Source of the DNA: Verrucomicrobia bacterium UBA2281
Lineage (GTDB): Bacteria; Verrucomicrobiota; Kiritimatiellia; CAIQIC01; Lenti-01
Assembly: GCA_002347655.1 (NCBI GenBank)
Contig: DDWR01000020.1
Coordinates: forward strand, 76,155 to 140,154
Direction: 5' to 3'
DNA length: 64,000 nt
The notes under the pieces are model-generated. The model saw only the letters and a list, made by a program, of their open reading frames with translations, had not been told where the DNA came from and made no database searches. Positions 14,428 through 42,800 of the stretch are shown piece after piece (the stretch's first letter is position 1; each line of letters opens with the position of its first letter). A program made the translations under genes and the position numbers.

Positions 14428-14975
14428 GCCGATGGGGATCGCTGCTCCGCCGCGGCTGGCACGAACGCCGGCGGCTGTGTTTCTACGGGCGCGAGCCCGT
14501 TCCCGAAACGGCGCCGGACGACCGGATCGCGGTTTATCGGAGCTGGGCGGACGTGCCCGCCGCGTTTCGGCGCGTCGTCGCGCCGGCACCGTTGCTGAGC
14601 GCGCCGGTTTGGCGCTTGCGGCGCGGCCGGGCCCAGTTGCTGTGCCTGTCCGTGGATGGGCGCACGCTGGCCGCTTACGGATGGCTTCAGGATTGGCGGT
14701 CGTTCCGCCGCCGGTTCGGCGCGCTGGCGCCGGATGGAACCATGCTGGGACCCTATTGGACGGCTCCGGCGGAGCGCGGCCGGGGACTGTATGGTCGGTT
14801 GCTGGCGCGCAGCCTCGCGTTGTGCCCCCCGAACCGGCCCGCGCTGATCTATGCCGCGCCCGAAAACGCCGCCTCGCGGCGCGGCATCGTCAAAGCCGGC
14901 TTCCGCCCGCTGGGCGAATGGGAATGGCATTGCTGGCTGGGCGTTTTCAGCCGATTCCGGCGGATTCCGGCCTGA
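14424..14975 (+). CDS. GNAT-family N-acetyltransferase (putative)
   Basis: ATGA overlap at 14424. C-terminal GNAT-like motif (..ERGRGLYGRLLARSLAL..IYAAPENAASRRGIVKAGFRPLGEW). Confidence 0.45.
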   Translation: MSRWGSLLRRGWHERRRLCFYGREPVPETAPDDRIAVYRSWADVPAAFRRVVAPAPLLSAPVWRLRRGRAQLLCLSVDGRTLAAYGWLQDWRSFRRRFGALAPDGTMLGPYWTAPAERGRGLYGRLLARSLALCPPNRPALIYAAPENAASRRGIVKAGFRPLGEWEWHCWLGVFSRFRRIPA

Positions 14976-26100: not shown

Positions 26101-26391
26101 ATGCAGACGCGCGAAAACATCTTGGCGGCATTGCGGGAGCTCAAACCCGCGCTGGCGATGCGCTACAAGCTGCGCTCCATGGCTTTGTTCGGCTCGTATG
26201 CCCGCGGCGACCAGACGCCGGACAGCGACGTGGACGTTCTGGTCGATTTTGATCCTGCCATCGGCCTCGATTTCGTCGATTTGGCGGAGGCCATCGAGCG
26301 TCGGCTGGGGGTCAAAACGGACGTGGTTCCGGCGGATGGAGTCAAACCGCGTTACCGAGCCGTCATCCAAAAAGATCTGGTACATGTCTGA
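26101..26391 (+). CDS. mntA: nucleotidyltransferase-fold antitoxin MntA (of the HepT/MntA pair)
   Basis: 96 aa with a GS-x9-DxD motif (..LFGSYARGDQTPDSDVDVLVDF..). It overlaps the downstream HepT-like gene by 8 nt. Confidence 0.7.
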   Translation: MQTRENILAALRELKPALAMRYKLRSMALFGSYARGDQTPDSDVDVLVDFDPAIGLDFVDLAEAIERRLGVKTDVVPADGVKPRYRAVIQKDLVHV

Positions 26392-26713
26392 GCGCTCGGC
26401 TGAAATTCTGTTGGACGATATCCGCGAGGCGCTCGCGAAAATCGCCACCTATGTGCAAGGTTTGGATGAGGCTGCCTTTGCTGGCAATGGCATGGTCGTG
26501 GATGCCGTCTTGCGCAACATCTCCGTGATTGGGGAGGCCGCATCCAAGTTGCCGGACGAATTCACTCGCGCCCATCCCGAGATCGAGTGGCGCAAGATCG
26601 TCGGAATGCGCAATCGCCTGATCCACGGCTATTTTGGCGTTAGCCTGCCGTTGGTTTGGCAAACCATCCACGGTCACTTGCCCGAATTTAGGGACAAGCT
26701 GGACAAGCTGTGA
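26384..26713 (+). CDS. hepT: HepT-like toxin (DUF86, RNase of a type II/VII toxin-antitoxin pair)
   Basis: R-x4-HxY motif (..GMRNRLIHGYFGV..), 109 aa, directly coupled to mntA. Confidence 0.75.
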   Translation: MSERSAEILLDDIREALAKIATYVQGLDEAAFAGNGMVVDAVLRNISVIGEAASKLPDEFTRAHPEIEWRKIVGMRNRLIHGYFGVSLPLVWQTIHGHLPEFRDKLDKL

Positions 26714-27184: not shown

Positions 27185-29086
27185 ATGATCCATCAATTCA
27201 AGAACCGGAATTTCTACGTCATCCTGGCCGGGGACCTGCTGCTGTTCGCCGCCTCGTTGATCTTGGCCTACGGTCTGCGGTTCTCCCTGGACATTCCGGA
27301 AAAGGACTGGAGCCGCATCCTGTTCCTGTTGCCGTTTTTGCTGCCGGTGAAGACCGTTGTTTTCATGTTGATGGGCGTCTACCGGGGGATGTGGCGCTAT
27401 ACCAGCGTCCCGGACGCCCTCCGACTGGTCAAGGCGTCGGTGCTGGCCACCTTGACCGTGATGACGGCCCTGACGCTGACGCAGCAATTCTACGGCTATT
27501 CCCGCTCCGTGTTCGTGGCGGATTGCATTTTCACGATCTTTTTCTGCGGCGGGTTCCGCTTGGCCATCCGGATCCTGGGCACGAACAAGCGGGCCATGCT
27601 CAAGTTCTGGGACCGGGAGCCGGAGGACAGCCTGCCGGTCCGGCACGTGCGGCTGCTGATCATCGGCGCGGGGGATGCGGCGGCCAGCATCATCCGGGAA
27701 ATCCAGGGCAATCCGCGTTCGTCCTACGACGTGGTGGCCTGCATCGACGACGACCACCACAAGTACGGCCAAACCCTGCTCGAAGTGCCGGTGCGCGGGC
27801 CGATCGACAAGCTGTTGTATTTCGTGAACCGCTTCCAGGCCGACGAAATCCTGATCGCGATGCCGTCGGTGGTGGGCGAGGAAATGCGCCGGATCGTCGG
27901 CGCCTGCAAGGCGGCCGGTTTGCCGTTCAAGACCTTGCCGTCGCTGGGGGCGCTGGTGGACGGCAAAGTGACGGTAAACGACGTCCGCGAAGTGAAGTAC
28001 GAGGACATCCTTGGCCGCCCGCCGGTCCAGATGGACTACGCCGGCATCGGCCAGTATCTCACGGGCAAAACCGTGGCCGTGACCGGGGCCGGCGGCTCCA
28101 TCGGTTCGGAACTGTGCCGGCAGATCCTGCGCTTCAAGCCGGCGGCGCTGGTGCTGATCGAGGCCAACGAATTCAACCTCTACCGGATCGAGCGGGAATT
28201 GCTGGCCGACCGCCACGCAGGCGTGCTGCGCGTCGTGATGGGCCGGGTGCAGGACCGCGCGCTGATGGCGAACGTCTTCGACAAGTACCGGCCGCACGCC
28301 GTGTTCCACGCCGCCGCCTGCAAGCACGTGCCGATGGTGGAAACCAATCCCTGGGAGGGCATCCTCAACAACACGGTCGGCAGCCAGACGCTGATGGACG
28401 TGGCGGAGGAGTACGGCGTCGAGCGGTTCGTGCTGGTGTCGACGGACAAGGCGGTGCGGCCGACGAACGTGATGGGCGCGAGCAAGCGCGCGGCCGAGAT
28501 CGCGCTGCAGGCCCGCGCGCCGGGCAAAACCCGTTTCATGGCGGTGCGGTTCGGCAACGTGCTGGGGTCTTCGGGTTCGGTGATTCCGCTGTTCCGGAAG
28601 CAGATCCAGGCCGGCGGGCCGGTGACGGTGACGCATCCGGAGATGACCCGCTACTTCATGATGATTCCCGAGGCCTGCCAATTGATCCTGCAGGCGGGCG
28701 CAATGGGCGCCGGCGGCGAAATCTTCATTTTGGAGATGGGCACGCCGGTCAAGATCGCCGACATGGCCCGCGACATGATCCGGCTGTCCGGCAAGGTGCC
28801 CGACCAGGACGTCCAGATCGTCTACACGGGCCTGCGTCCGGGCGAAAAGCTCTACGAAGAGTTGATCACGCAGGGCGAAGGCATCGTGGCGACCGCGCAC
28901 GAGAAGATCATGGTGCTCAAGCGGGACGGCCAAGGTGCCGTTGCCGCCGATGCGGACCGGAACGTCCGCGCGCAGATCGACCGTTTGGCGGCGGCGGCGG
29001 CCACCTTCGAGCCGGAACGGATCAAGGCCGCGCTCAAGGAAATCGCGCCCGAATACGCGCCGGCCAATCATTCCGCGCCGGCATGA
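27185..29086 (+). CDS. membrane-bound UDP-N-acetylglucosamine 4,6-dehydratase (PglF/CapD/WbpM-like polysaccharide biosynthesis protein)
   Basis: N-terminal 4 TM segments, then Rossmann GxGxxG (..LLIIGAGDAAAS.. and ..VAVTGAGGSIGSEL..), ..VFHAAACKHVPMVE.., ..VSTDKAVRPTNVMGASKRAAE... 633 aa from ATG 27185. The track ORF extends upstream in-frame to 26957, but that extension overlaps vanZ. Confidence 0.8.
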   Translation: MIHQFKNRNFYVILAGDLLLFAASLILAYGLRFSLDIPEKDWSRILFLLPFLLPVKTVVFMLMGVYRGMWRYTSVPDALRLVKASVLATLTVMTALTLTQQFYGYSRSVFVADCIFTIFFCGGFRLAIRILGTNKRAMLKFWDREPEDSLPVRHVRLLIIGAGDAAASIIREIQGNPRSSYDVVACIDDDHHKYGQTLLEVPVRGPIDKLLYFVNRFQADEILIAMPSVVGEEMRRIVGACKAAGLPFKTLPSLGALVDGKVTVNDVREVKYEDILGRPPVQMDYAGIGQYLTGKTVAVTGAGGSIGSELCRQILRFKPAALVLIEANEFNLYRIERELLADRHAGVLRVVMGRVQDRALMANVFDKYRPHAVFHAAACKHVPMVETNPWEGILNNTVGSQTLMDVAEEYGVERFVLVSTDKAVRPTNVMGASKRAAEIALQARAPGKTRFMAVRFGNVLGSSGSVIPLFRKQIQAGGPVTVTHPEMTRYFMMIPEACQLILQAGAMGAGGEIFILEMGTPVKIADMARDMIRLSGKVPDQDVQIVYTGLRPGEKLYEELITQGEGIVATAHEKIMVLKRDGQGAVAADADRNVRAQIDRLAAAAATFEPERIKAALKEIAPEYAPANHSAPA

Positions 29087-30507
29087 CGCCCGGGAGTTCC
29101 ACGCCGGTTTTCTGGTGCCGGAAGGCGTCGGTATCCGCCTGTCGCGAGGGCGACAACCTCATCCTGTTCGATCCCGACCGCGCCCGCGAAAAAGTCGTCA
29201 ACCGCGCCGGCACCGCCGTCTGGGAAGCCATGGACGGTGCAGCGCGGACGGAGGATCTCGCGGCGGCGCTGGCTCGGCGCTATGAAACCGCGCCGGCGGA
29301 CGATGTCCGCGCCGACGCCCGCGCGTTCGCGGAAGAACTGCTCCGCGACGGATTCGCCGCGGCCGCGCCCGCGCCGCGGCCGGTGCCGCTGCCGGCGGAG
29401 GACTATTCCTGGCTGCGCGAGGCGCCGCGCGCGCTGGATCTCTCCTTGACCGGCCGCTGCAACCTGCGGTGCGCCTATTGCTTCTATGCGGACGAAATGG
29501 TCGGGCGGCGGGATCTGCCGGCGAAACGCTGGCTGGATTTCTTCGCGGAATTGAAACGCCTTGCGGTGCGCAGCCTGACGCTGAGCGGCGGCGAGCTTTT
29601 CATGCGGCCGGATTTGTGGGAACTGCTCGACGGAATCGTCGCGGCGCGCATGCGCTTTTCGATCCTGACCAACGGGACGCTGCTGACGGAAGACGTTCTC
29701 GCGCAACTGGGGCAGGCGCACCGGCGGCGGCGGCTGGACGTGGTCCAGGTGTCGATCGACGGCTCGCGGGCGGAGATCCACGATGCGTCGCGCGGCCAGG
29801 GCAGTTTCGAGAAGGCGCTCCGCGGGCTGCGGCTTTTGAAGGCGGCGGGCATTCCGGCGACGGCCCGCGTGACGGTCAACCGGCACAACGCCGGCGATCT
29901 GGAGAATACGGCGCGGTTGCTGCTGGACGAGATCGGCCTGGCGCGGGTCGGCACGAACGACGCGATGCCGATGGGCACCGGCTGCGCGCGGCGGGAAGAC
30001 ATCGTGCTGTTGCCTGCGCAGCGCCCCGAAGCAATGCGCACGCTGGTCCGGCTCGAGAAACAATATCCCGGCCGCATCACGGCCACGGCCGGTTCGCTGG
30101 CGCTGTGGCACATGTTCCGCGAGATGGAGGAGGCGCGGGCCACGGGACAGAAGACCCGGCGCTGGAGAATGGGTTGCCTGTCGTCCTGCGGGTGCATGTT
30201 CGCGAAGCTGGCGGTGCACCACGACGGCATGATCGTGCCGTGCAACATGCTGGCGGCAGCTGCGCTGGGCTCCATCGGCGAGACGCCGATCCGCTCCATC
30301 TGGCAGGACCATCCGCTGCTGAAGGAAATGCGCGGGCGGGGGCAGATCCCGATGGCCCGGGTGCCGGGCTGCGCGGATTGCGAATGGGCGCCGTATTGCA
30401 GCGGGGGGTGCCCGGCGGCGGAATACACCCGGACGGGCGAAATGAACGTGGCGAATCCGGAGTGCTGCTACCGGCGGTTCCTTGAAGAGTGTGGGGAATT
30501 GCCGTGA
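29083..30507 (+). CDS. radical SAM/SPASM-domain peptide-modifying enzyme with fused N-terminal PqqD-like RRE (RiPP recognition element)
   Basis: ATGA overlap at 29083. N-terminal 90 aa is PqqD-like (..LILFDPDRAREKVVNRAGTAVWEAMDGAARTEDLAAAL..). CxxxCxxC (LTGRCNLRCAYCF). C-terminal SPASM Cys cluster (..CLSSCGCMF..C..CADCEWAPYCSGGC..). Confidence 0.8.
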   Translation: MTPGSSTPVFWCRKASVSACREGDNLILFDPDRAREKVVNRAGTAVWEAMDGAARTEDLAAALARRYETAPADDVRADARAFAEELLRDGFAAAAPAPRPVPLPAEDYSWLREAPRALDLSLTGRCNLRCAYCFYADEMVGRRDLPAKRWLDFFAELKRLAVRSLTLSGGELFMRPDLWELLDGIVAARMRFSILTNGTLLTEDVLAQLGQAHRRRRLDVVQVSIDGSRAEIHDASRGQGSFEKALRGLRLLKAAGIPATARVTVNRHNAGDLENTARLLLDEIGLARVGTNDAMPMGTGCARREDIVLLPAQRPEAMRTLVRLEKQYPGRITATAGSLALWHMFREMEEARATGQKTRRWRMGCLSSCGCMFAKLAVHHDGMIVPCNMLAAAALGSIGETPIRSIWQDHPLLKEMRGRGQIPMARVPGCADCEWAPYCSGGCPAAEYTRTGEMNVANPECCYRRFLEECGELP

Positions 30508-30523
30508 GAGGGAGGGGGGGCAT

Positions 30524-30561
30524 CGAGGTCCGAGGTCGGAGGTCCGAGGTCGGAGGTCCGG
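30524..30561. repeat. tandem heptanucleotide array (SGAGGTC) x5 copies; upstream inverted partner of the array at 31001-31084
   Basis: cgaggtc cgaggtc ggaggtc cgaggtc ggaggtc cgg, read directly. It is the reverse complement of the GACCTCS units downstream of the enclosed gene. Confidence 0.8.
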
Positions 30562-30618
30562 AAGGCAGGGACAAGAGATGCGAGATCCGAAGCCCGCGGG
30601 CAATGAAAAGGAGCGCAA

Positions 30619-31002
30619 GTGAAAATATTTTCGGCGAAGGATTTGGATGCCTATCGGCTGGCGTATTCGCTGGCGATGGAAATTTTCCGGCTGAGCAAAA
30701 AGTGGCCGGCCGAGGAAAAATATTCGCTGACAGATCAAGTGCGCCGCAGTTCGCGTTCGGTGTGTGCCAACATGAGAGAGGCGTGGGCCAAACGAAGATA
30801 TGAAGCCCATTTCATGAGCAAACTGACGGATTGCGACGGCGAAAACAGCGAAACGGACACTTGGCTGGATTTCGCCCGCGATGGCGGATATTTGCCGTCC
30901 GCCGATCATAAACGCCTGACAGCCGACTGCAAACGGGTCGGGGCAATGCTGGGAGGCATGTTGAGAAACCCGGCCCCGTTTTTGAAGGGTGACCCTCCGT
31001 GA
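30619..31002 (+). CDS. four-helix-bundle protein (TIGR02436 / 23S-rRNA-IVS-protein family), second copy
   Basis: GTG start preceded by AAAAGGAG. MKIFSAKDLDAYRLAYSLAMEIFRLSKKWPAEEKYSLTDQVRRSSRSVCANMREAWAKRRYEAHFMSKL.. is a textbook match to the family consensus. Confidence 0.75.
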   Translation: MKIFSAKDLDAYRLAYSLAMEIFRLSKKWPAEEKYSLTDQVRRSSRSVCANMREAWAKRRYEAHFMSKLTDCDGENSETDTWLDFARDGGYLPSADHKRLTADCKRVGAMLGGMLRNPAPFLKGDPP

Positions 31003-31631
31003 CCTCGGACCTCCGACCTCGGACCTCGGACCTCCGACCTCGGACCTCGGACCTCCGACCTCGGACCTCGGACCTCGGACTTCGTTTCGCGCTCCGCGCG
31101 GACGTCGCCATCGAAGATTTCGGCGAGCGGGCGCTGGTGCTGCGATGCGACGCGCTGGAGCTGCGCGAAGTCAACGCCGGCGGCCGGAAGATCCTGGAAC
31201 GGGTTGACGGCAACCGGACGGTGAAGGATATTGCCGGCGATGCGGGAATGGCGGTCGACGTCGTCCGCGACGCGTTGCTGGAGATGGAACGCCAGGGGTT
31301 GGTCCGGCGCGTCGTGGAATTGAGAAAGGAAAGGTTCGGAAATATGAGCGAGGCCCAATATCTGGCCGACCCCGACGTGTCCTTCCGTCCGGAAGACGAC
31401 GACGGAGGCATTCTCTACAACGCGGAAACCGACGTGCTGGAAGTGATCAATCCGACGGCCGCCGAGATCTGGAAGTTCCTCGCGGCGCCGCGCACGCCGG
31501 CCGACGTGGTCGCGCATCTGCTCGGCGTCTGCGACGGCGCGTCCCGGGACCAGGTCGAGCGGGACGTGGAGGCGTTTCTGGAGTCCATGCGGAGCAAGGG
31601 CTTCGTCGGCGTGGTCGCGGAGCCGGCATGA
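30999..31631 (+). CDS. tandem PqqD-like (RRE) domain protein; N-terminal 28 aa encoded by the heptanucleotide repeat. May alternatively be expressed as a separate PqqD unit from the internal ATG at 31344.
   Basis: Single ORF with no in-frame stop. GTG 30999 overlaps the upstream TGA (GTGA). Two PqqD-like halves (..ALVLRCDALELREVNAGGRKILERVDGNRTVKDIAGDAGMAVDVVRDALLEMERQGLV.. and MSEAQYL..GGILYNAETDVLEVINPTAAEIWKFLAAPRTPADVVAHLL..RDVEAFLESMRSKGFV). AGGAAAGG lies 9 nt before the internal ATG 31344. Start choice uncertain. Confidence 0.5.
   Translation: MTSDLRPRTSDLRPRTSDLRPRTSDLGLRFALRADVAIEDFGERALVLRCDALELREVNAGGRKILERVDGNRTVKDIAGDAGMAVDVVRDALLEMERQGLVRRVVELRKERFGNMSEAQYLADPDVSFRPEDDDGGILYNAETDVLEVINPTAAEIWKFLAAPRTPADVVAHLLGVCDGASRDQVERDVEAFLESMRSKGFVGVVAEPA
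31001..31084. repeat. tandem heptanucleotide array (GACCTCS) x12 copies (84 nt), inverted relative to 30524-30561
   Basis: gacctcg gacctcc gacctcg gacctcg gacctcc ... gacttcg, read directly. It is in frame with the ORF 30999..31631 and encodes (TSDLRPR)x4. Confidence 0.85.
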
Positions 31632-32827
31632 CGGATCCGCGCGACTCCTGCGACGGACTGGCCGACCGGCCCGCGGCCGGGCCGGTGGTCGCCATGTCGC
31701 CGGACGTCCCGGCCTTGCGGACGTTCTATCTCTACCTGTCCGCCGGCTGCAACCTGCATTGCCGGCATTGCTGGATCACGCCGACGTTCGTGCATGGGAA
31801 ACCGGTCCCGGCCGAATGCCTGGATTTCGGCTTGTTGAGAAGCGCGGTGGCGGAAGCCAAGCCGCTGGGACTGGCGGCCGCCAAATTGACGGGCGGCGAG
31901 CCGACCCTGCATCCGGAATTCCGGCAGATCGTCGATTTCCTGACGGCGGAGGGCCTGGAACTGTCCATGGAAACCAACGCCACGCTGATCGACCGCGAGT
32001 TGGCGGTGCATCTGGTTTCCAAGACGAACCTGAGGCGGGTCGCCGTGAGTTTGGACAGTTCCGTTCCGGAAGCGCACGACCGTTTCCGGGGGGTAAAGGG
32101 GGCCTTTGCCGCCGCGGTGGCGGGCATCGGGCATTTCGTGGCGGCCGGAATGCGCCCGCAGCTCATCATGTCGGTTTATCGCGGCAATCTGGACCAGATC
32201 GAAGGCTTGATCGAACTGGCGATCCGGCTGGGCGCGGGCGCGGTGAAGTTCAATCCGGTGACGCAGTCGGGCCGCGGCGCGGACCTGCACCGGCAAGGGC
32301 AGGGGCTGGATTTCGACGAGTGGCTGGCGCTGATCCATCGCATCAAAGGGCCGCTTCAAGACCGCTATCCCGCGATGCATCTGGGGGCGATGGTGCCGCC
32401 GGCGATGTCGAGCGCAAAAGAACTCCTGCGCTACGGCGCGGAGGGCGCGGGCTGCCACGTGCGCCACATTCTCGGGATCCTCGGCACGGGCGAAATGGCC
32501 TTGTGCGGCATCGGGCGGAATATTCCCGAGCTTTGCTTCGGCCAATTGGGGAAAGACTCCCTGCGGGAAGTCTGGCTGAACCATCCGACGCTGGTGCAGA
32601 TGCGCAAGGACCTGGAAGGACCTTATCCGGGTATCTGCGGCGATTGCCTGCATGCGGGCCGTTGCATGACCCATTGCCTGGCCCAGAATTTCGAGGCCAA
32701 CGGCAAGCTGGTCTCGCCGTCGCCGCTGTGCGCGGAGGCGGTGCGGCGCGGGGTGTTTCCGCAGAGCCGAAGAAAAACGTGGACAGGGATCAGGGAACAG
32801 GGGACAGGGGACAGCAGAAGACAATGA
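31628..32827 (+). CDS. radical SAM/SPASM-domain protein (second peptide-maturase-type enzyme)
   Basis: ATGA overlap at 31628. CxxxCxxC (..LSAGCNLHCRHCWI..). SPASM-type Cys cluster (..CHVRHIL..LCGIGRN..CGDCLHAGRCMTHC..). 399 aa. Confidence 0.8.
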   Translation: MTDPRDSCDGLADRPAAGPVVAMSPDVPALRTFYLYLSAGCNLHCRHCWITPTFVHGKPVPAECLDFGLLRSAVAEAKPLGLAAAKLTGGEPTLHPEFRQIVDFLTAEGLELSMETNATLIDRELAVHLVSKTNLRRVAVSLDSSVPEAHDRFRGVKGAFAAAVAGIGHFVAAGMRPQLIMSVYRGNLDQIEGLIELAIRLGAGAVKFNPVTQSGRGADLHRQGQGLDFDEWLALIHRIKGPLQDRYPAMHLGAMVPPAMSSAKELLRYGAEGAGCHVRHILGILGTGEMALCGIGRNIPELCFGQLGKDSLREVWLNHPTLVQMRKDLEGPYPGICGDCLHAGRCMTHCLAQNFEANGKLVSPSPLCAEAVRRGVFPQSRRKTWTGIREQGTGDSRRQ

Positions 32828-33460: not shown

Positions 33461-33816
33461 GGCGGTTTTTCCAAAAAATCGCAACAAATGACCTGTTCGG
33501 GGCTGAAAACGGCTCCATTCGGCTCTGAAAAGCTCTCCAACGGCGGAAATTTCATCGAAAACGGATCAATTTTCGTTCTGCGCGCCCAAAATTAGCGGAA
33601 AGAGCCCTCTTGCGCGCCTCTGTTAAGCTGAAATTGCAGAAAACTCCTTAAAAATCGCCCTAAAACGGCCCAAAGGGCCCGAAGTCTTAATCAAAACCAC
33701 ACACGAATATAATCTATATTTAATTGTGCATGATTTGCGCACATTCCTGTGGGAGAATATGATGTCGTTATCAATTGAAGAGAGTTTCGCCGTCTGCAAC
33801 AGGTTGCGCGGAAAGA
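33461..33816 (+). promoter_or_regulatory. unusually AT-rich 350-bp intergenic region; putative promoter/regulatory region of the giant gene
   Basis: Abrupt drop in GC (ttccaaaaaatcgcaacaaatg.., ..aatataatctatatttaattgtgcatgatttgcgcaca..). Contains direct repeats gctgaaaacggctcc / ctctgaaaagctctcc and an imperfect palindrome tgtgcatgatttgcgcaca just upstream of the start. Confidence 0.3.
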
Positions 33817-36800
33817 ATGAGAAAACGGTCCACATTTCGGATTGGGCGGTGTTCGTGGTGTGCGATGGCCGCGGCACTGGTTCTGGCTGGACCCGTGTGG
33901 GGTGGGAACCCGGACGGGGATCTGCGCGTCGAGATCATCACGGCCTACAATCTGGTGGTGGATTCCAACGCGGAGTCGCCCTCGACCTACGCGCCGAAAT
34001 CGGCCTACATCGGGGCGAAGTTCTGCAACGACGGCGCCAACGCGCTGACGAACGTCTGGGCGTACATCGGCGATCTGGACGCCGGGACGCCGGGGACCTA
34101 TCCGAGCCGGGCGCACCCGCCGCTGGTCGGTCCGCTGCCGGGCGGGGAATTCGCGCTGGTCCACGAGGGCGGCACGATGGGGGCGAACGACGCGACGCGC
34201 TACGTCGGCACCATCGAGCCGGGCGAATGCGTCACGGTCTATTGGCTCGTCAGCTATCCGCAGCTGGATGAAAACGGCGACGCGGTCTGGGGGCCCAGCA
34301 TCAAGCCCGACGACGACCTGTGGCTGGAGTACGACGTCTGGGCCACGGCCCGGGACGGCGGCGCCTATCTGCAGGCCGACGACTCGCGCACGCTGACCTG
34401 CCGCAACGAAATTTCCGCCATGGCCAACAAGATCTGGCCCAACGGCGCCAACAAGGTGCCCCAGGAATACAAGGATTTGCTGCAGCAGTACGCGCCGCTC
34501 TGGACGAACACGTCGGCCGTCGCCGAACCCGGCGCGATCCTGCGCACGGAAGGCATCTGGTACGATCTGGGCAACGTTGGCGACGGGTTCGACAACGACG
34601 GCGACCTGGTGCCGGACCGCAACGCGTGGCTCCAGCCCGTCGGCGATCCGGATCTGTTTGATCCGTCCTGCTTCCGGCTGGTGCGCACCTACGCGATGGT
34701 GATCGTGAAGCTCAACGACGGGACCGAGCAGGTCATCGTCGTGGAGGACCAGCTCTACTTCACCCAGATCCCCGCGAACAACCGCGGGGCGGTGGGCTAC
34801 GTGATGTACGAGTTCATTGCCATCGGGTCGGGCTGCGTCAGCACCCTGACGCCGTACCAGGAAGTGGCCTCGGGCTTCGACAACGAGAAGTTCAACGGCG
34901 ACTACGGCGCGCCGGGGCAGACCCTGACCGGCGGCACGTCGCTGCTGGCCATCGCGAAAACGGCGGACCCGACCCTGACGCGGCCGGGAAGCAACGTCGC
35001 CTATACGGTCACCTATACGAATTCGGGCCCGGATCCCTCCGGCCGGCCGGACATCGGCTTGCCGGTGGTGATCCAGGATGCCATCCCCACGGGCACGGTC
35101 TACGTGGCGGGCAGCGCGACGGCCGCCAACGTCCTGCCACAAGGCGTAGGCAGCTACACGGTCTATTTCTCGACGAACCACGGCCTGACCTGGTCCCTGA
35201 CGGAGCCGGCGATCGCCACCAACGTGACGGACGTGCAGTGGTGGCTGAGCGATCCGTTGCCGCCCGGCGGAACCGGCACCGTGAAGTTCTCCGTCACGGT
35301 CAAGAATCCCTGGCCTTACCCGAGCCCGGTCGTGCCGAACACCTCGGGACTGAGCTTCGGCAACACGACGCCGTTCCTGTGGGCGCACGCGCAGACGCTG
35401 CTGCTGGGCAACAACGCGCTGGGCGACACGGTCTGGCGCGACGACGGCGAAGGCGGCGGTCTGCTCGGCAACCAGCTTCAGGACGGCGGTGAAACCGGCA
35501 TCACCGGCGTGACGGTGCGCCTGTATTACGATCTGGACGGCGACGGCGGAGCCGACTATCTGTTCGCGACCACGAACACCGGCGCGAGCGGTTACTACAC
35601 CTTCACCAACCTGCCCGACGGCCATTTCGTCGTGGTCGTGGACGCCGCGGATCCGGACGTGCCGTTCGGCTACACGCCGACCACGCCGACGGCCTTTCCC
35701 ATTGCGCTCGATCCCGCGCGCACCAACGTCAATCCCGTCGTGGACTGGACCTCCGACTTCGGCTTCGCGCCGGCCCTGACGCTGGTGAAGACGTGGACCA
35801 GCACCAACGCCGTCCGCGAAGGCCAGTTGATCGGCTACAATCTGACGGTCTCCAACAGCCTGCCGGGCGACGGCACCGGTTCAGGTTCGCCGGCGACTTA
35901 TTTCGCCTGGGCGTCCACCGGTGGCGCCAACTATAAAAACACCGAATGGGTGGACTACTGGAACGCCTACACTCCCCCGGGGCCGGACGGCGTGTACTGT
36001 TCCAACCAGTTCGCGGGCCCGACGACGGTGCTCTCGCTCACCAACTTTACCGTCGGCGCGCAATTGGGGGAGGCGACCACCGTCTCGCTCGTGATTCCGA
36101 TCTTGATGGTTCCGCCCATCGGCGGCGACGACACGGTGACCATCGACGTCCGAACCAAGTCGCCCTCCGAGTCGCGCTTCACCGAGACGTATCTGGCGAC
36201 CAACCTCGTCAACGGCGTCTGGACGATTCCCATGACGGGCATTTACGATTGGGCCTGGGCGGACTTCGACACGAACGCCGTGGTGACGCTGACGGCCAAG
36301 AAGAACGCCGGCGGCACGGCCGGCGGCTGGATCCTGGTGGACGCGGTCGGGTTCAAGATCGAAAGCGACCAGACCGTCGGCGTGGCCGGCGGCACCACGA
36401 CGCTGGATCCGGTGCCCCTCGTGGACCGCTACGATCCGGCCCGCCTGCAGTTCGTGAGCGCCCAGCCGCCGGAGTCGCGCGTGGTCTCCAACGGCACCGG
36501 CACGATCTACTGGGACAACGTGGGGCCGATCTATCCCGGCGGCACCTCGACGGTGGCGGTGACGTTCAAGCTGCTCGAGCCGCCCAACAACACCAACGCC
36601 GTCGTCACGAATACCACCTGGGTCACCAACGCCTACTTCCAGGGCGGCGCGCAAGCCAACAACGCCACGAGCAGCGTGGTCGTCACGCAGTTTCCGGCCG
36701 CGACCGTCGGCGACTACGTCTGGCGCGACCTGGACGGCGACGGCATCCAGGACGCGGGCGAACCGGGCGTGCCCAACGTGGCCGTGTCCATCACGCCGCC

Positions 36801-39800
36801 GGCCGGCATCGACCTGGGGAACGGCCTTGGCGCGGCCATCACCAACTGGACGGACGAAAACGGCTACTACCTGTTCGAGTCGATCCCGACGACCGGGATC
36901 TACACGGTGCGGGTGGTGACGGCGACCCTGCCGGGCGGGACGGGCGTCAATACCTTCGACGAGGACGGCGTGCTGAACAGCCAGACCGCCGTCTACCTGG
37001 ACATCTACGCCAACGGCACGAACAACCTGCATCTGACGACCGATTTCGGCTACACCCTGCCCAGCACGATCGAAGGCACCATCTGGCACGATTATGATCG
37101 GGGGCAGGAAGCCTATCGCGAAGCCGGCGAGGACTGGATGACCAACGTGACGGTCTATCTGTGCGCCAGCCCGTCGCCCTGCGGCCCGGACGCGTCCATC
37201 GCCACCAACGTCACGACCACCAACGGCTATTTCCAGTTCACCGGCAACTTCATCGGCACCTACACCGTCTACGTTGCGACCAATTCCGGCATGCTCAGCA
37301 ACGGCTCGTGGAAGATCTCGTTCGACACGGACGGCACCAACACGCCGAATGTTGCCGCGGTGACGGTTCCGCTCGGCGGGACGGGGCGGGCGGACTTCAG
37401 CTACTTCCGCACCGGACCCTACCGGATCGGCGACACGGTGTTCTACGACTGGAACAGCGACGGCGTGCAGAACGTCGAATCCGAGGGCGGCATCTCCAAC
37501 GTCACGGTCTATCTCTACGAAGACGCCAACGGCAACGGCGTGGTGGACGCGGCGACCGACGCCTTCGTCGCCTCGACGGTCACCGCCACCAACGGCTACT
37601 ACCTGTTCACCAACCTGTTCGCGACGAACACCTACCTGGTGATCGTCGATCGGCAGGACCCCGACCTGCCGGCGAACTACATCGTGACCGCGGACCCCGA
37701 CGCCGTGAAGGACGCGCGCAGCGTCGTGACGATCGTCAACGCCGACGATTTCGACCAGGATTTCGGGTTCTGGCCCTACGGAAACGGCGCGATCGGCGAC
37801 ACGGTGTGGAAGGACGTGAACGCCGACGGGATCCAGCTGGGCTATCAGGAGCCGGGCATCGCCGGCGTGCGGGTCACGCTCTACTACGAAGCCAACGGAA
37901 CCTGGTGGCCGCTGCGGAGCATGGACACCGACGCCAACGGCATGTATCTCTTCGACTCCCTGCCGGACGGAAACTACCGGGTGGCGGTGGACGATGCGGA
38001 CGCCGACCTGCCGGTCGATGCCTTGGGCAACGCCTATTATCCGAGCACCCCCGTCTTCCACGACGCGACGATCAGCGGCGGCAACGTCTACCTGGACGCC
38101 GATTTCGGCTTCGCGCCCTACGGCGCGATCGGCGACACGGTCTTCTGGGACCTCAACCGCAACGGCGACCAGGACTTCAACGACCCCGGCGTGGCCGGCG
38201 TGGACGTTTACCTGTATGCCGACGCCAACGGCAACGGCATCTACGATGCGGGCGAAACGCTGGTGGCCACCGAAACCACCGACGCGACCGGGTTCTACGT
38301 GTTCTCCGGCCTGCTGCCGGACCGCTACGTCGTCGTGGTCGAAACGGCCAGCGGCCCGCTGGCCGGCACGGACCCGACCGCCGATCCGCAGTCGGACGGC
38401 CTGGCCTGCGACGATCCGCTCAACGTCGTGCCCTGCGACGACCAGTGCGGCTGGACGCTCGCGCCCGCGCAGATCTTCATGGGCGCGGACTTCGGCTATG
38501 CGCCGCGGGGCGTCATCGGCGACACGCTCTGGATCGATACCAACGGCAACGGCGTGCGCGACGAAAACGAACTCGGTATTCCGTACGTCGACGTGATCCT
38601 GTATTCCAACGGGGTGGCGATCGCCACAAACGCGACGGATGCCGACGGCTACTATGGCTTCAGCGGCCTGGTGGACTTCGCCAACTACGGCGTGCGGGTA
38701 GCGACCAACGACGTCGATTTCCCGGCCGGCCTGACGAACACCTGGACGGCGGACGGCACCTTCGACAACTACGCGACCAACATCGTGATGTCCGGCGGCG
38801 CCGTGACCTCGATCGGCGGCTATCCTTGCACGGACTGCGACCTGAACGTCGATTTCGGCTACCGCTACGCCGGCAACAACAGCCTGAGCGGCACGATCGG
38901 CCTCGACGCGCCGCCCTACGACGGCCTGATGAACGGCCTGAATCCGTCCGGTCCCGGCGCGGGCGAATCGCCCTATGCCGGCGTGCCGGTGACGCTCTAT
39001 CTCTGGAACGACGACGGCGACGGCATCCTCGAGGCCGGCGAAACCGTGCAGATCGGCACGAAGACCACCGATGCCAACGGGGATTACGCTTTCACGGGAT
39101 TGCCGAACGGCGACGGCAACGACAAGTACGTCGTGGCCAGCCCCGCGCCGGAAAGCTATCTGACGCTCACCACCACCAACGGCTCCATCGCCGGCGTGGC
39201 GGTGTTTTCGACGACCAATCTCCAGGGGTACGCCGTTTCCGCCCGGCTGGCGGTCGACGTCGCGGCGAACGTCACGAACATGGACTTTGCCTACGCCTCC
39301 CAGAAGGCCTACGACTACGGGGACCTGCCGGAGAGCTACAAGACGTTGCTGTCCGATGGCGCTCGGCACGTCGTGCCGCCGACGCCGAATCTCTATCTGG
39401 GCGCCGGCGTGGATACCGAACAGAACGGCGCACCTTCCACGGGCGCCGATGGCGACGATCTGGCCGGGACGGACGACGAGGACGGCGTGGTCCAGATCGT
39501 TTCGTCCACGTGGCGGACCGGCACGGCCGGCGGTTCCGTCGAAGTGACGGTGGGCGCGGGCAGCGGCTGGTTGCTGGGCTATATCGATTTCAACGGCGAC
39601 GGCGATTTCGTGGACGCCGGCGAAATGGTCTGCAACTTGGCGGTTTCGAACGCCGGCGGCAACGGGGTAGGAGTCTACACCAACGCGTTCACCGTGCCCG
39701 CCGGCACGTTCTCCGCGACCAGTTCCACGCCGCTCTACGCGCGCTTCCGGATTGTTCCGTCCCGGCCGCTGTTCCCCGAACTGGCCTATGCCGGCACGGC

Positions 39801-42800
39801 CGAAAACGGCGAAGTGGAGGATTATCTCTGGCATCTGGCCGGCCTGGGCGACTACGTCTGGTACGACGTGGACGGCGACGGCGTGCAGGACGCCGGCGAG
39901 CCGCCGATCGTCGGCGTGCGCGTGTTTGCCGACCTCAACGACGACGGCGTCTGGCAGACCACCGAACCTTCGGCGACAACCGATTCCAACGGGCTGTACG
40001 GCATCGGCGGACTGGTGCCGGGAACCTATTCCGTGCGGGTGGACACGAGCACGCTGCCGGCGGGCGTCACGCCGACCTACGACCTCGACGGCATCGGCAC
40101 GCCCCACCAAGCTTCGGCCGAAATCACGGCGCTCGACCAGTTCGTTGCCACCGTCGATTTCGGCTATGCTCCGCCGGTGAACATCGGCGATCGGGTGTGG
40201 TTCGACGCCAACCGCGACGGCATCCAGAACGCCAGCGAAACCAACGGGCTTTACGAAATCCCCGTCGCGTTGCTGGACACCAACGGGAACGTCGTGGCCG
40301 AAACGGCCACCGATTCTGAGGGCAACTACCTGTTCGCGAACATGCCGACCGGCACCTATCTGGTCCGGTTCGACCTGTCCGTCTTCACCACGAACGAAAT
40401 GCTCAGCCCGTCCAAGGTCGGCAGCGACGACGCCATCGACAACGATTGGGTTTCCGGCAACGCCAGCGACTACGCCTGGACGGCGCCGTTCTCCGTTTCG
40501 GGGGGCGAGGACTACCTGGACGTGGATCTCGGCGTGGCCACTCGTTCGCCGACGCGCGCCGAACTGGCCGAGGTCTGGGGCGAATGGGTGGAAAATGAAG
40601 GACGCGTGGTTTGGCGCACCGATGCGGAATACAGCACGGCCGGATTCTTCGTCTATCGCGTCGATCCGGAAACCGGCGCGGAATCGCGGTTGAACGAGCG
40701 ATTGGCGCTTTCCGCGTTCAACGAAGGCGGCGCGACCTACGCGCTGGCCGATCCCGCGGCGCGCGCCGGCGAGGAACGGACCTATCGCCTGGAAGAAGTC
40801 GAATTGTCCGGCGAACGCCGCGACCTGGGCACGCGCGAAATTCGTTTTGCAGAACCGGCTGAACCCACCGCGGTTTCCCGCTCGGCGCTGGCGGCGCCAC
40901 CCGCGAAAAAATCCGTTCGCCCCAAGGGCCTGGCGGGTCCGTCCGCGGTGCTGAAGGTTCACGTGGGCCGGGAGGGCCTCTATGGCTTGGGTTGGTCGGC
41001 CATCGCGGACGGCATGGGACTCGCGCCGGCGGACGTGCAGGCGCTGGCCGAAGCGGGTTCGCTGAAGATCGCGCGCCAAGGCGAACCCGTGCCGACGCTC
41101 GTCGATGCGGCGCGCGAACGGCTGCTCTTCCATGCGCGGCCACCGGTGCGCACCTGGTACGCGCACGACGACGTCTATCTGGTATCGGTCGGTGACGGGC
41201 TGCCGATGGTGCGGCGCGATCCAGGCGCGGTGGCCGGAACGACGGCCTTTCCGACGACGCTCCGCTTCGAAGAAAACAGATTCCTGTTCAGCATGAACCG
41301 CATGCCCGCCGATTTCTACTTCTGGATTCCGGTCATGAGCGGCTACGGGGAGCTGTCGGTGACCAACGTGCCGCTGGATCTGGGCGGCTATGCGGGCGGC
41401 GACGTGGCGCTGACCGTGCGCCTGATGGGCTGGTCCAGCTCGACCAATCATCCCGACCATCTGGCGCGGTTCGCCTTCAACGGCGTCGAACTGGGCGAGA
41501 TGTCCTTCGACGGGCAGGAGGTGGCCGAGGCCCATTTGGCGGTGCCGGCGTCCATCGTGTCGAACGGCGTCAATACCTTTGCGATCGAAGGGGTGCTGCA
41601 AGCCGGCCGCAGCGACAGCTTCTTCGTGGTGGATTGGGTGGATGCCTCGTTTGTCCGGACGCTGGCGCCCGAAACGATTCCCGCCGCGTTCGGCGCGAAC
41701 GGAGCCGCCGCGGTTTCCGCGCAGGCCTTCGCCGAACCGATCGCCGTGGCCGTGGACGAGATGGGCAACCCGACCTGGATTGCCGCCGAAAACGGGGAAT
41801 TGCCGACCAAAGCGTGGGCCGTCGCCTCGCCGACCGAACGGTATGCGGTCGTCGCGGCCGACGCGCTGCCGATGCTGGCGCCCGAGCCGGCCGCGGCGGA
41901 CGCCTGGTTCCTCTCGGCCGAAAACCAAATCGATTACCTGGTGATTGCCTCCCGCGACTTGGCCGCGGCGGCGCAGGAACTCGTGGATTATCGCGCGGGG
42001 CAGGGGCTGCGCGCCGGCTTGGCGACGTTCGAAGACGCCTGCGATTTGCTGACGGGCGGCGTGCGGACGCCGGAGGCCGTTCCGGCTCTGCTGAAGCGTG
42101 CCGCGGCGACCTGGGCGGTCGCGCCGCGGATGGTCGTGCTGGCCGGCAGCGGGCACTACGACTACCTGGGCATCAACTATGCCGAACCCAACCATCTGCC
42201 GCCGCTGCTGGTCCAGATGCCGGCCGGCGTGTGCGCTTCGGACGGCTTGCTGGCCGATACGGGCGGCGACGAACTGCCGGATCTCGCGATCGGGCGGTTG
42301 CCCGCGCTGACCGCCGCGGAACTGACCGCCATGATTGCGAAGATCAAGGCCTACGAAGCGGGCTTCGGCTCCGCATGGCAGAACCAACTCGTGCTGGCGG
42401 CGGACAACGCCGACGCGGCGGGTCCGTTCCTGGCGGCGAACCAGCGGTTGGCGGATTTGGTGGAAACGCCCTATGCGGTGGCCGAACGGATCGAACTGGA
42501 TTCGATGGCATTCGGCTTGGCGCGCACGAATCTCTTGCGCTGGTTCAACGTCGGCGCGGGCTTCATCAACTACGTCGGCCATGGCGACATCAAGAATCTC
42601 GCGTCGGAAAAGTGGCTGAAGGATACCGACGTGGCGGCGATGGTGAACACCTCCCGGCCGCCGGTGGTGGCCACGCTGACCTGCCTGGCGGCGCGGTACG
42701 AAGTGCCCGCCGTGCATAGCCTCGGCGAGCGCCTGCTGCGGCAAGCCGGCGGCGGCGCCGTCGCGGTGCTGGGTCCCTCCGGCCTTTCGCAGAACGCCCC

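Follow-up and report, generated by a model that had tools for sequence, protein, structure and literature searches.

Genes for 'intervening sequence (IVS) proteins', small proteins of the four-helix-bundle (4HB) type, are common in bacterial genomes, and we know of no function for them; the forms of these elements that are borne on ribosomal RNA (rRNA) have been described as selfish elements whose origin is unknown. Here we describe a 4HB gene that lies inside a protein-coding operon of Verrucomicrobia bacterium UBA2281 (GenBank assembly GCA_002347655.1, contig DDWR01000020.1, positions 76,155 to 140,154 of the forward strand), with the gene enclosed by two inverted arrays of heptanucleotide repeats and followed by an open reading frame (ORF) for a PqqD-like protein, with which the second array is in frame. 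The whole stretch analysed, 64,000 nucleotides in length, is referred to as the window, and positions are counted from its first letter. A preliminary description had presented the second array as a candidate for slipped-strand phase variation, and whilst the array itself was described correctly, the paired inverted array and the 4HB cassette that it belongs to were overlooked. We consider it probable that this 84 nt array is the right terminal inverted-repeat arm of a mobile cassette of ~577 nt (30508–31084), and that the array is now translated as the tail of a protein.

Several described systems resemble parts of this arrangement. The IVS of Coxiella burnetii 23S rRNA forms a stem of 28 bp that is cut by RNase III, with tandem heptamers (GACAGAT) present beside its ORF in two or three copies depending on the strain (PMC4990558). 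In neuO of Escherichia coli K1, carried by phage CUS-3, full-length protein is made only when the number of AAGACTC units is divisible by three, with the perfect repeats ranging from 3 to 53 units and the gene being OFF in 65.6% of 64 complete genomes (PMC13001214). Paired convergent short arrays in Geobacter metallireducens, termed 'global regulator sites' of classes 1–3, have been interpreted as regulator or protein-binding sites (PMC2700814), and convergent pairs of GGGAATC arrays in Xanthomonas have been interpreted as G-quadruplex-forming sequences (PMC4692102). In the literature, of which our coverage was incomplete, so that an earlier description may exist, no account was found of such a cassette outside rRNA or of a translated arm, nor were the literal repeat strings found.

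An inverted-arm cassette around a four-helix-bundle gene

The cassette consists, in order, of a left array, a Shine-Dalgarno (SD) sequence, the 4HB gene, and the right array, with the left array at 30524–30560, (CGAGGTC)x5.3, being the exact reverse complement of the units of the right array. The inverted arms extend over 28–41 nt with a complementarity of 85–100%, arms of 37 nt being 95% complementary. Tandem Repeats Finder (TRF) reports the right array (31001–31084) with a period of 7, 12.0 copies of the unit GACCTCG, 90% matches, and a score of 140, and the left array with periods of both 7 and 14. A 13-mer spanning two units has 15 matches within the two arrays and 18 in total, compared with an expectation of 2.6 ± 1.7 for the whole 64 kb, and a total of 18 was reached in none of 100 shuffles. 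With GACCTCG written as G, GACCTCC as C, and GACTTCG as T, the units of the right array, which is not a homogeneous run of 7-mers, follow one another in the order G,C,G / G,C,G / G,C,G / G,G,T. The recurring G/C/G variants generate a super-period of 21 nt, with 42 nt copies spaced 21 nt apart being 100% identical, and the longest perfect tract reaches 76 nt at period 21 compared with 24 nt (3.4 units) at period 7.

The product of the gene between the arms matches PF05635 (E 2.4e-29, 102 bits; cutoff 33.8) and TIGR02436, 'four helix bundle protein' (96 bits; cutoff 24), with 2gsc and 2rld as its relatives in the PDB. In the predicted fold of the RNA from 30500 to 31110, the left array and the distal portion of the right array base-pair to form a long stem that encloses the 4HB ORF, with a minimum free energy of −280 kcal/mol compared with −238 kcal/mol for shuffled sequences (z = −7.4). 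In an mRNA, pairing of the two arms would give a helix of 37 bp or more with the 4HB ORF inside it, much like the intervening sequences of rRNA, and such a stem would be a plausible site for RNase III and could make translation downstream depend on ribosomes that open the stem. A scan for promoters and terminators predicted none on the + strand of 30508–31084, and no Rfam family, rRNA included, reached its gathering score within 30300–31400; an AS1726 match on the minus strand of this interval, listed at E ≤ 1, has 26 bits against a gathering score of 50 and is regarded as chance. The SD core (GGAGGT/GAGGT) is found in the left units, and ACCTCC in the right units equals the anti-SD core of 16S rRNA, both in the window and in the metagenome loci L035–L114 (homologous loci are given L numbers where they need to be told apart). 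Mimicry of SD and anti-SD sequences was rejected as a general rule for the arms, being absent from the CTGTCCC and CCAATAT arrays described below.

Judged from protein model matches, the host operon appears to be a SynChlorMet (SCM)-type radical-SAM peptide-maturation operon of a Kiritimatiellia-like lineage known from metagenome-assembled genomes (MAGs). The product of the gene upstream of the cassette matches the ScmE model TIGR04250 (404.3 bits, cutoff 400), that of the second gene downstream matches the ScmF model TIGR04251 with 331 bits, below the cutoff of 400, and the PqqD-like protein between them matches the ScmD model with 43.6 bits, below the cutoff of 100 and over its C-terminal domain only; in relatives, the downstream gene is annotated with PF27840 (ScmC). 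A scan with an alignment of the PqqD-like protein against one genome per species retrieved 21 orthologous loci. Where the cassette is absent, the scmE stop and the PqqD-like start overlap as ATGA or GTGA (L012, L017, L021, L024, L026, L027, and L031), with L031 being the closest relative without a cassette and the species scan supplying the other six of these native overlaps. Such empty junctions have no intergenic space, and 6–10 codons separate the start from the conserved L-R-F/Y. The TGA of the window's scmE-like gene (30505–30507) is overlapped by GTG 30504, which occupies the position of the native next-gene start in the cassette-less relatives. A relic frame is also present here (30489–30803, + strand), in which GTG 30504 opens an ORF of 104 aa that runs through the left array (…VRGRRSEV…) and then out of frame into the 4HB gene. 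In L011, L032, and L118, scmE lacks a stop of its own and runs into the left array, acquiring a repeat-encoded C-terminal extension (...ETGDRGQ..., ...LPEVRDPRSEV...).

The nucleotide identity between the window and L035 is 97.7% over the 4HB gene, compared with 77.7% at the 3′ end of scmE and 70.4% over the PqqD-like gene, with the stretch of high identity extending from directly after the scmE stop (GAGGGAGGGGGGGCAT) to the end of the right array. In contrast, the 4HB gene of L032, the closest host relative (88% identity in PqqD), is more diverged, with an identity of 80%. L117 and L118 are 94–98% identical over scmE, PqqD, and scmF, whereas their 4HB genes share 62% identity and are flanked by different arrays, and the scmF sequences of L117 and the empty allele L124 agree at 100% of 618 nt. 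A single cluster of proteins at 90% identity holds an empty form (MSGAADLRY..., 189 aa), a GACCTCG-type form (203 aa), a form with seven further residues, or 21 nt (210 aa), and a CTGTCCC-type form (197 aa).

Units of the window's type are also present at L032–L035 and L116–L117, and in seven species a 4HB gene is found at exactly this junction with (GGGACAG/GAGACAG)n on its left and (CTGTCCC/CTGTCTC)n on its right. The 4HB genes of this CTGTCCC type are ~60% identical to that of the window, their hosts being 68–75% identical, with the gene reduced to a pseudogene in L010 and truncated in L016. Three species (L013–L015) have no 4HB gene and carry a solo, in-frame (CCAATAT)x~4 array directly after GTGA/TTGA, ~65 nt upstream of the match to the PqqD-like protein, with these arrays translating as NIQYPISNIQS-like N-termini; possibly, they are footprints of cassette deletion between duplicated (A/G)TGA ends. 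At every locus with an intact 4HB gene, an ATG or GTG overlaps the 4HB stop or sits a few bases away, opening the PqqD-like frame through the right array. The contrasts in identity, together with the mixture of cassette forms among near-identical hosts, show that cassettes are gained, lost, and exchanged at this junction on the time-scale of strains.

A classical target-site duplication was considered and rejected, with CCGTGA present at 30502–30507 and at 30997–31002, but the right copy lying inside the element, before the right array. The paired copies could mediate deletions that leave solo arrays behind. In L035 (226–330), the left flank contains a tandem duplication of ~50 nt (array plus GGAAGGCAGGGACAAGAGAGG), with the rest of its cassette being 97.7% identical to that of the window.

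The architecture recurs well beyond this operon. A scan of metagenomes with the window's 4HB protein retrieved 80 loci of 61–97% identity, the window's own contigs not being among them, and the flanks were surveyed for the 68 of these 4HB genes that have at least 150 nt on both sides, with complementarity scored at a Smith-Waterman score of at least 14. Runs of period 7 lie to the left of 44 genes and to the right of 35, with 53 having a run on either side and 26 on both, whilst the control periods of 5, 6, 9, and 10 gave 0–1 runs and period 8 gave five. Complementarity between the left and the right flank is seen for 34 of the 68 genes, compared with five in direct orientation and one after shuffling. 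The commonest units are of the (C/T)(A/G)GAGGT type on the left and the CTGACCT type on the right, with the 4HB stop found in the context CTGA in 41 of the 68, the stop usually being the TGA of the first right unit. An array of the form (CTGACCT)n carries TGA in all three frames, whereas that of the window is free of stops. The first possible start of long downstream ORFs mostly lies 5–35 nt past the array, often without a recognisable SD sequence, which we treat as no more than suggestive, the proximity following in part from the array's own stops.

Among four plasmid-borne 4HB genes of cyanobacteria, those of Nostoc edaphicum and N. punctiforme (L120, L122) are flanked by inverted arrays with units of 8 nt, for example GCAGGGGA on the left and the TGCTCCCC type on the right. 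The Leptolyngbya plasmid copy (L123) has purine-rich and pyrimidine-rich flanks with no clear periodicity, and the flanks of the Oscillatoria plasmid copy (L121) are purine-rich on both sides and do not form an inverted pair. We tentatively propose that 4HB genes with inverted arrays of 7–8 nt units may constitute a widespread, unclassified family of mobile operon cassettes, an mRNA counterpart of the rRNA IVS, which would home to translation-start junctions, with types replacing one another at a site and the arms serving as RNA stems and as stop/restart modules. In such a family, the usual right arm would stop all three frames just before the next start codon, and the arm in the scm operon would have been remodelled into coding sequence. 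If such a family exists, the origin of IVS elements and of the abundant 'four helix bundle protein' genes becomes directly testable.

The right arm as probable coding sequence

The array is in frame with the ORF at 30999–31631, and the only start upstream of it is the GTG of a GTGA, both as given in the preliminary description. The TGA of the 4HB ORF (30619–31002) is overlapped by GTG 30999, which is the sole canonical start upstream of the conserved N-terminal domain, because an in-frame TGA lies at 30990–30992 and the array is devoid of NTG codons. A leader of 81 nt separates GTG 30999 from the conserved LRF, which begins at nt 31080, with the 12 × 7 nt of the array keeping it in frame, and the ORF translates as M(TSDLRPR)3TSDLG-LRFALRADV... 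(210 aa). The array therefore encodes TSDLRPR repeats as had been reported, with three full units and a partial TSDLG rather than four units. The ORF overlaps the next radical-SAM gene, to which coupling had been proposed, as ATGA at 31628–31631.

Comparison of homologous sequences makes it likely that GTG 30999 is used and that the array encodes an N-terminal tail. Between the array and the following potential start, GTG 31137, lie 19 residues that are conserved at the protein level among 33 aligned homologs, with R6, E12, and F14 being invariant and L1, L5, I11, D13, G15, and L19 nearly so. Since this stretch is conserved and falls within a domain of PqqD-like fold, translation must begin upstream of 31080. 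Furthermore, array-bearing loci that were retrieved blind to frame, ten via the species scan and one (L035) via the 4HB scan, are in frame in all 11 cases and across three heptamer types, starting at an (A/G/T)TGA overlap or at an ATG. Their leaders measure 18, 42, 54, 63, and 66 nt, compared with 81 nt in the window, and with about five independent length states at 1/3 each, the chance of all being in frame is ~0.004. Within a type, the leaders step by 21 nt (18/39/60/81 and 42/63), with a +21 nt allele found within one population, and even degenerate arrays contain no in-frame stops. Compared with the common CTGACCT unit, the first unit, (A/G)TGACCT, creates a start, and the later units, CGGACCT/CCGACCT, remove every TGA.

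The cassette in this way rebuilds the native stop-start overlap at its own right end, with GTGACCT providing both the 4HB stop and the GTG start. Ribosomes that end translation of the 4HB gene, or that initiate de novo, would start at GTG 30999 and produce a tail of 27 residues, M(TSDLRPR)3TSDLG, with translation of scmF expected to follow via the ATGA overlap at 31628. The tail encoded by the array is likely to be tolerated, since the native N-terminus is short and variable. If GTG 30999 is the start, TSDLRPR and the segment LRFALRADVAIEDFGER would be expected in peptides.

A second start within the same ORF, an internal ribosome-binding site (RBS) and ATG at 31344 with two possible products, had also been proposed, and the proposal is favoured by a conserved start codon, a conserved upstream signal, and the match to the ScmD model. 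The codon at this position is ATG in 13 and GTG in two of 15 distinct loci, and AAGGAAAGG is conserved at a fixed distance upstream, with its Arg codon always AGG or AGA despite a G+C-rich background. The ScmD model TIGR04248 (84 aa) aligns only to residues 95–177 of the 183 aa conserved part of the protein, whose N- and C-terminal halves align to one another with an hhalign probability of 72% (E 3.5e-5). At E ≤ 0.001 the PqqD-like protein has 131 homologs; of these, 120 were listed, almost all with a length of 175–218 aa, and the alignment of these homologs contains conserved residues from position 1. The gene may thus be a fusion that retains the start signals of its ScmD part, as these sequence features suggest. 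An array out of frame would remove the N-terminal domain only, because the conserved internal RBS and ATG 31344 remain, and the ATG could still give a domain of canonical ScmD size. The features of the locus are collected in Table 1.

Table 1. Coordinates of the cassette, the junction, and the adjoining scm-type genes in the window
Feature	Position	Strand	Basis or remark
scmE-like gene (PqqD domain, radical SAM, SPASM)	29083–30507	+	Pfam PqqD, Radical_SAM, SPASM; called in L003/L004
Left-end spacer, GAGGGAGGGGGGGCAT	30508–30523	+	Start of high identity to the L035 copy; junction string common to the window and L035
Left inverted-repeat arm, (CGAGGTC)x5.3	30524–30560	+	TRF; paired in the RNA fold with the right array's distal part
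Shine-Dalgarno-like, AAAAGGAG	30606–30613	+	5 nt upstream of the 4HB GTG start; read from sequence
4HB gene, 127 aa, 23S-rRNA-intervening-sequence-protein / S23p family, distantly Avd-like	30619–31002	+	PF05635, TIGR02436
GTGA	30999–31002	+	4HB stop, overlapped by the sole canonical start of the PqqD-like ORF; part of the first array unit, which is modified (GTGACCT, usually CTGACCT)
Two-domain PqqD-like / ScmD-like chaperone ORF, 210 aa	30999–31631	+	Conserved protein from L-R-F, nt 31080
Right inverted-repeat arm, (GACCTCG/GACCTCC)x12	31001–31084	+	Stop-free in all frames, 21 nt super-period, read as (TSDLRPR)3TSDLG
Internal SD-like GAGAAAGGAAAGG, then ATG 31344, at the two-domain junction	31322–31346	+	Conservation in 15/15 loci; TIGR04248
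Pfam-recognised PqqD domain, aa 138–203	31410–31607	+	PF05402, E 1.1e-16
scmF-like radical SAM/SPASM gene	31628–32827	+	ATG overlaps the PqqD-like stop (ATGA); TIGR04251

Directly downstream of the scm operon lies an ORF of 3553 aa (33775–44436, + strand), whose relatives have Pfam matches to SdrD_B repeats, GEVED, Peptidase_C25, and MBG_3, and which contains a 216 nt tandem repeat of 2.1–2.4 copies at 43186–43712. A nucleotidyltransferase/HepT-like toxin-antitoxin pair is located at ~26101–26713 (474–1086 of L003), upstream of a polysaccharide-synthesis gene and the scm genes, and a 45 nt tandem repeat (1.9 copies, 79% matches) is present at 14558–14642.

Copy number and alternative readings of the array

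An identical array of 12 copies is present in the independent ENA and JGI assemblies L001, L003, and L004, each 100% identical to the window, and is therefore not an artefact of a single assembly; three Logan contigs end inside the array and yet match the 3′ end of the 12-unit allele. Short-read contigs start inside the arrays at window positions 30474, 30536, and 31047 (L001, L002, and L007–L009). As the cassette arms are a recurrent cause of contig ends, copy numbers taken from MAGs should be treated with caution. With this in mind, among assemblies of the same strain L001, L003, and L004 have 12 units and L002 has four, out of frame, whilst the other loci are in frame.

Several observations weigh against a mobile cassette with a translated arm. 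The closest empty site already holds two heptamer-like units, GATCTCGGACTTCG, and part of the array could therefore be local in origin. Neither a transposase nor a reverse transcriptase adjoins the cassette, the rest of the window not having been screened for reverse transcriptase. If the stem were cut by RNase III, GTG 30999 would be split from the coding region downstream, opposing translation through the array, and the gene callers used in three of four assemblies chose GTG 31137 as the start. Additionally, L002 has four units (G,C,G,T) that place GTG 30999 out of frame, with 99.95% identity over the part that aligns, ~6.5 of 8.2 kb, and the gene coordinates of P0070, considered without its DNA, probably fit a five-unit allele that is also out of frame. 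From these two alleles, loss of frame therefore appears to be tolerated, at least transiently. A further candidate allele, P0119, turned out to consist of a run of N at a scaffold gap.

The out-of-frame alleles bear on the phase variation of the preliminary description, which can be extended to an evolved contingency locus. Slipped-strand gain or loss of single 7 nt units would then frequently turn the gene of the ScmD-like chaperone ON and OFF, and scmF with it through coupling. The geometry of the repeat stands as described, with a unit that is not a multiple of three located in the 5′ coding region, between the sole start codon and the body of the gene and in frame with both (12 × 7 nt). 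The unit number ranges from three to 12 among relatives, neuO provides a precedent of a translated heptanucleotide switch (AAGACTC; PMC13001214), and the four-unit allele of L002 (MAG GCA_002412675.1) differs at the array from an otherwise 99.95% identical sequence. The junction within this allele (C-variant, G-variant, GACTTCG) is absent from the 12-unit allele, which by our own reasoning makes assembly collapse of a simple k-mer kind unlikely, and argues against that kind only. However, the allele derives from a short-read MAG contig that starts inside the left array, and an error of assembly is possible. Arrays of this kind are also generic to 4HB cassettes, where they lie mostly outside coding sequence, and the differences in length observed are multiples of 21 nt. 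A long uninterrupted tract able to slip in the register of a single unit is lacking, and slippage should mostly preserve the frame, because the 21 nt register is perfect over 76 nt and the 7 nt tracts are short (24 nt). The frame is ON at all 11 frame-blind loci and in all 20 members of two protein clusters, compared with ~66% OFF in neuO, and the internal start at 31344 would blunt an OFF state. With the array being an arm of a 4HB cassette that has short 7 nt tracts and rare out-of-frame alleles, phase variation is weakly supported, and we regard a classic contingency locus as unlikely. In the cassette, copy number would instead change mainly by steps of 21 nt (three units, seven codons) with the frame kept, and frameshifting would be a liability or side-effect of the arm rather than its purpose.

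Whether the array is translated at all can also be questioned, with the downstream gene then being expressed only from GTG 31137 or ATG 31344 and the frame shared with GTG 30999 being incidental. This accords with the JGI and NCBI gene calls, which start at 31137 and give 164 aa, with the recognition by Pfam of the C-terminal PqqD domain alone, with the match of the canonical 84 aa ScmD to the C-terminal half only, with the conservation of the internal SD and ATG 31344, and with the existence of the out-of-frame four-unit allele. Against it, the 19 codons before 31137 are conserved as protein and belong to a domain alignable with the PqqD-like fold, whilst no canonical start is available between 30999 and 31137. 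Moreover, the frame is kept at 11 of 11 frame-blind loci over three heptamer types without in-frame stops, and the TGA of the common unit has been lost specifically in the array type of the window. An untranslated array is thus, in our estimation, quite improbable.

Least credible is a local expansion of the array from native GAC-CTC codons (a conserved D-L before R-F/Y), with the upstream inverted copy being secondary and not borne by a cassette: whilst the closest empty site, GTGAACGCGGATCTCGGACTTCGCTAC, includes two heptamer-like units, and in more distant empty sites this position is occupied by GACCTCCGC or GACCTGCGC, GAGGTCR left and YGACCTC right units flank 4HB genes in dozens of unrelated contexts, cassettes with the unrelated units CTGTCCC and CCAATAT use the same site, and the segment of high identity shared with L035 starts just past the scmE stop and extends through the whole right array, such that the native GACCTC likeness is more simply read as microhomology used in integration or as the footprint of an earlier cassette.

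Comparison with known systems

Read as a cassette, the locus presents an IVS-like element within a protein-coding operon, with horizontal movement, replacement at the same site, a two-arm architecture found in many environments, and an arm that has probably turned coding. We find the cassette family and its turnover at this site to be a more interesting result than phase variation, with the locus offering a concrete system for the movement of cassettes, the roles of their arms in RNA, and the survival of a host gene after insertion at its start codon. For annotation, the cassette explains recurrent low-complexity N-termini (TSDLGPR..., CPLSPDSC..., NIQYPISNIQ...) and the breaks of contigs at the arrays, and it warns against taking every 5′ coding repeat with a unit length indivisible by three for a contingency switch.

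The 4HB protein shares a distantly related four-helix-bundle fold with Avd of diversity-generating retroelements (DGRs), and PF05635 has been called Avd-like (PMC10053308). Its assignment as a DGR Avd was rejected, with a bAvd score of 35.9 against a cutoff of 40 (E 1.2e-8) and 27.9 bits against 80 for DivGenRetAVD (NF033474). Unlike Avd, the 4HB gene of the window adjoins scm genes, and not a reverse transcriptase or template and variable repeats.

The arrays of Geobacter and Xanthomonas are similar to the cassette arms in having units of 7–8 nt and in forming convergent pairs that lie between operon genes of the same orientation (moaA/mosC and proB/proA, for example), and the class 3 unit of Geobacter, MTYCTGA, is a rotation of CTGACTT-type units. 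In the one class 3 pair that was checked, the arrays lie ~100 nt apart, too close for a gene to be enclosed, and the papers make no link to 4HB genes; these gene-less arrays may be related to cassette arms. The likeness to neuO lies in a 7 nt tandem repeat that is translated at the N-terminus. Compared with neuO, the array of the window is imperfect, has a super-period of 21 nt, is nearly always in frame across loci, and derives from the arm of a cassette.

The closest known kind of element is the S23p-bearing IVS of 23S rRNA. The IVS of Leptospira, Coxiella burnetii, and relatives of Xanthomonas carry an ORF of the same family as the 4HB gene of the window (PF05635 / TIGR02436), and in both the rRNA IVS and the cassette, inverted repeats at the two ends surround this ORF and pair into a long stem, which for the cassette is predicted only, with both elements inserting recurrently at the same sites. 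In contrast to the IVS, the cassette of the window is located not in rRNA but inside a protein-coding operon, at a stop-start overlap flanked by scmE-like and scmD-like genes. Furthermore, both of its arms consist wholly of tandem 7-mers, and its right arm is free of stops, supplies a start codon, and is apparently translated.

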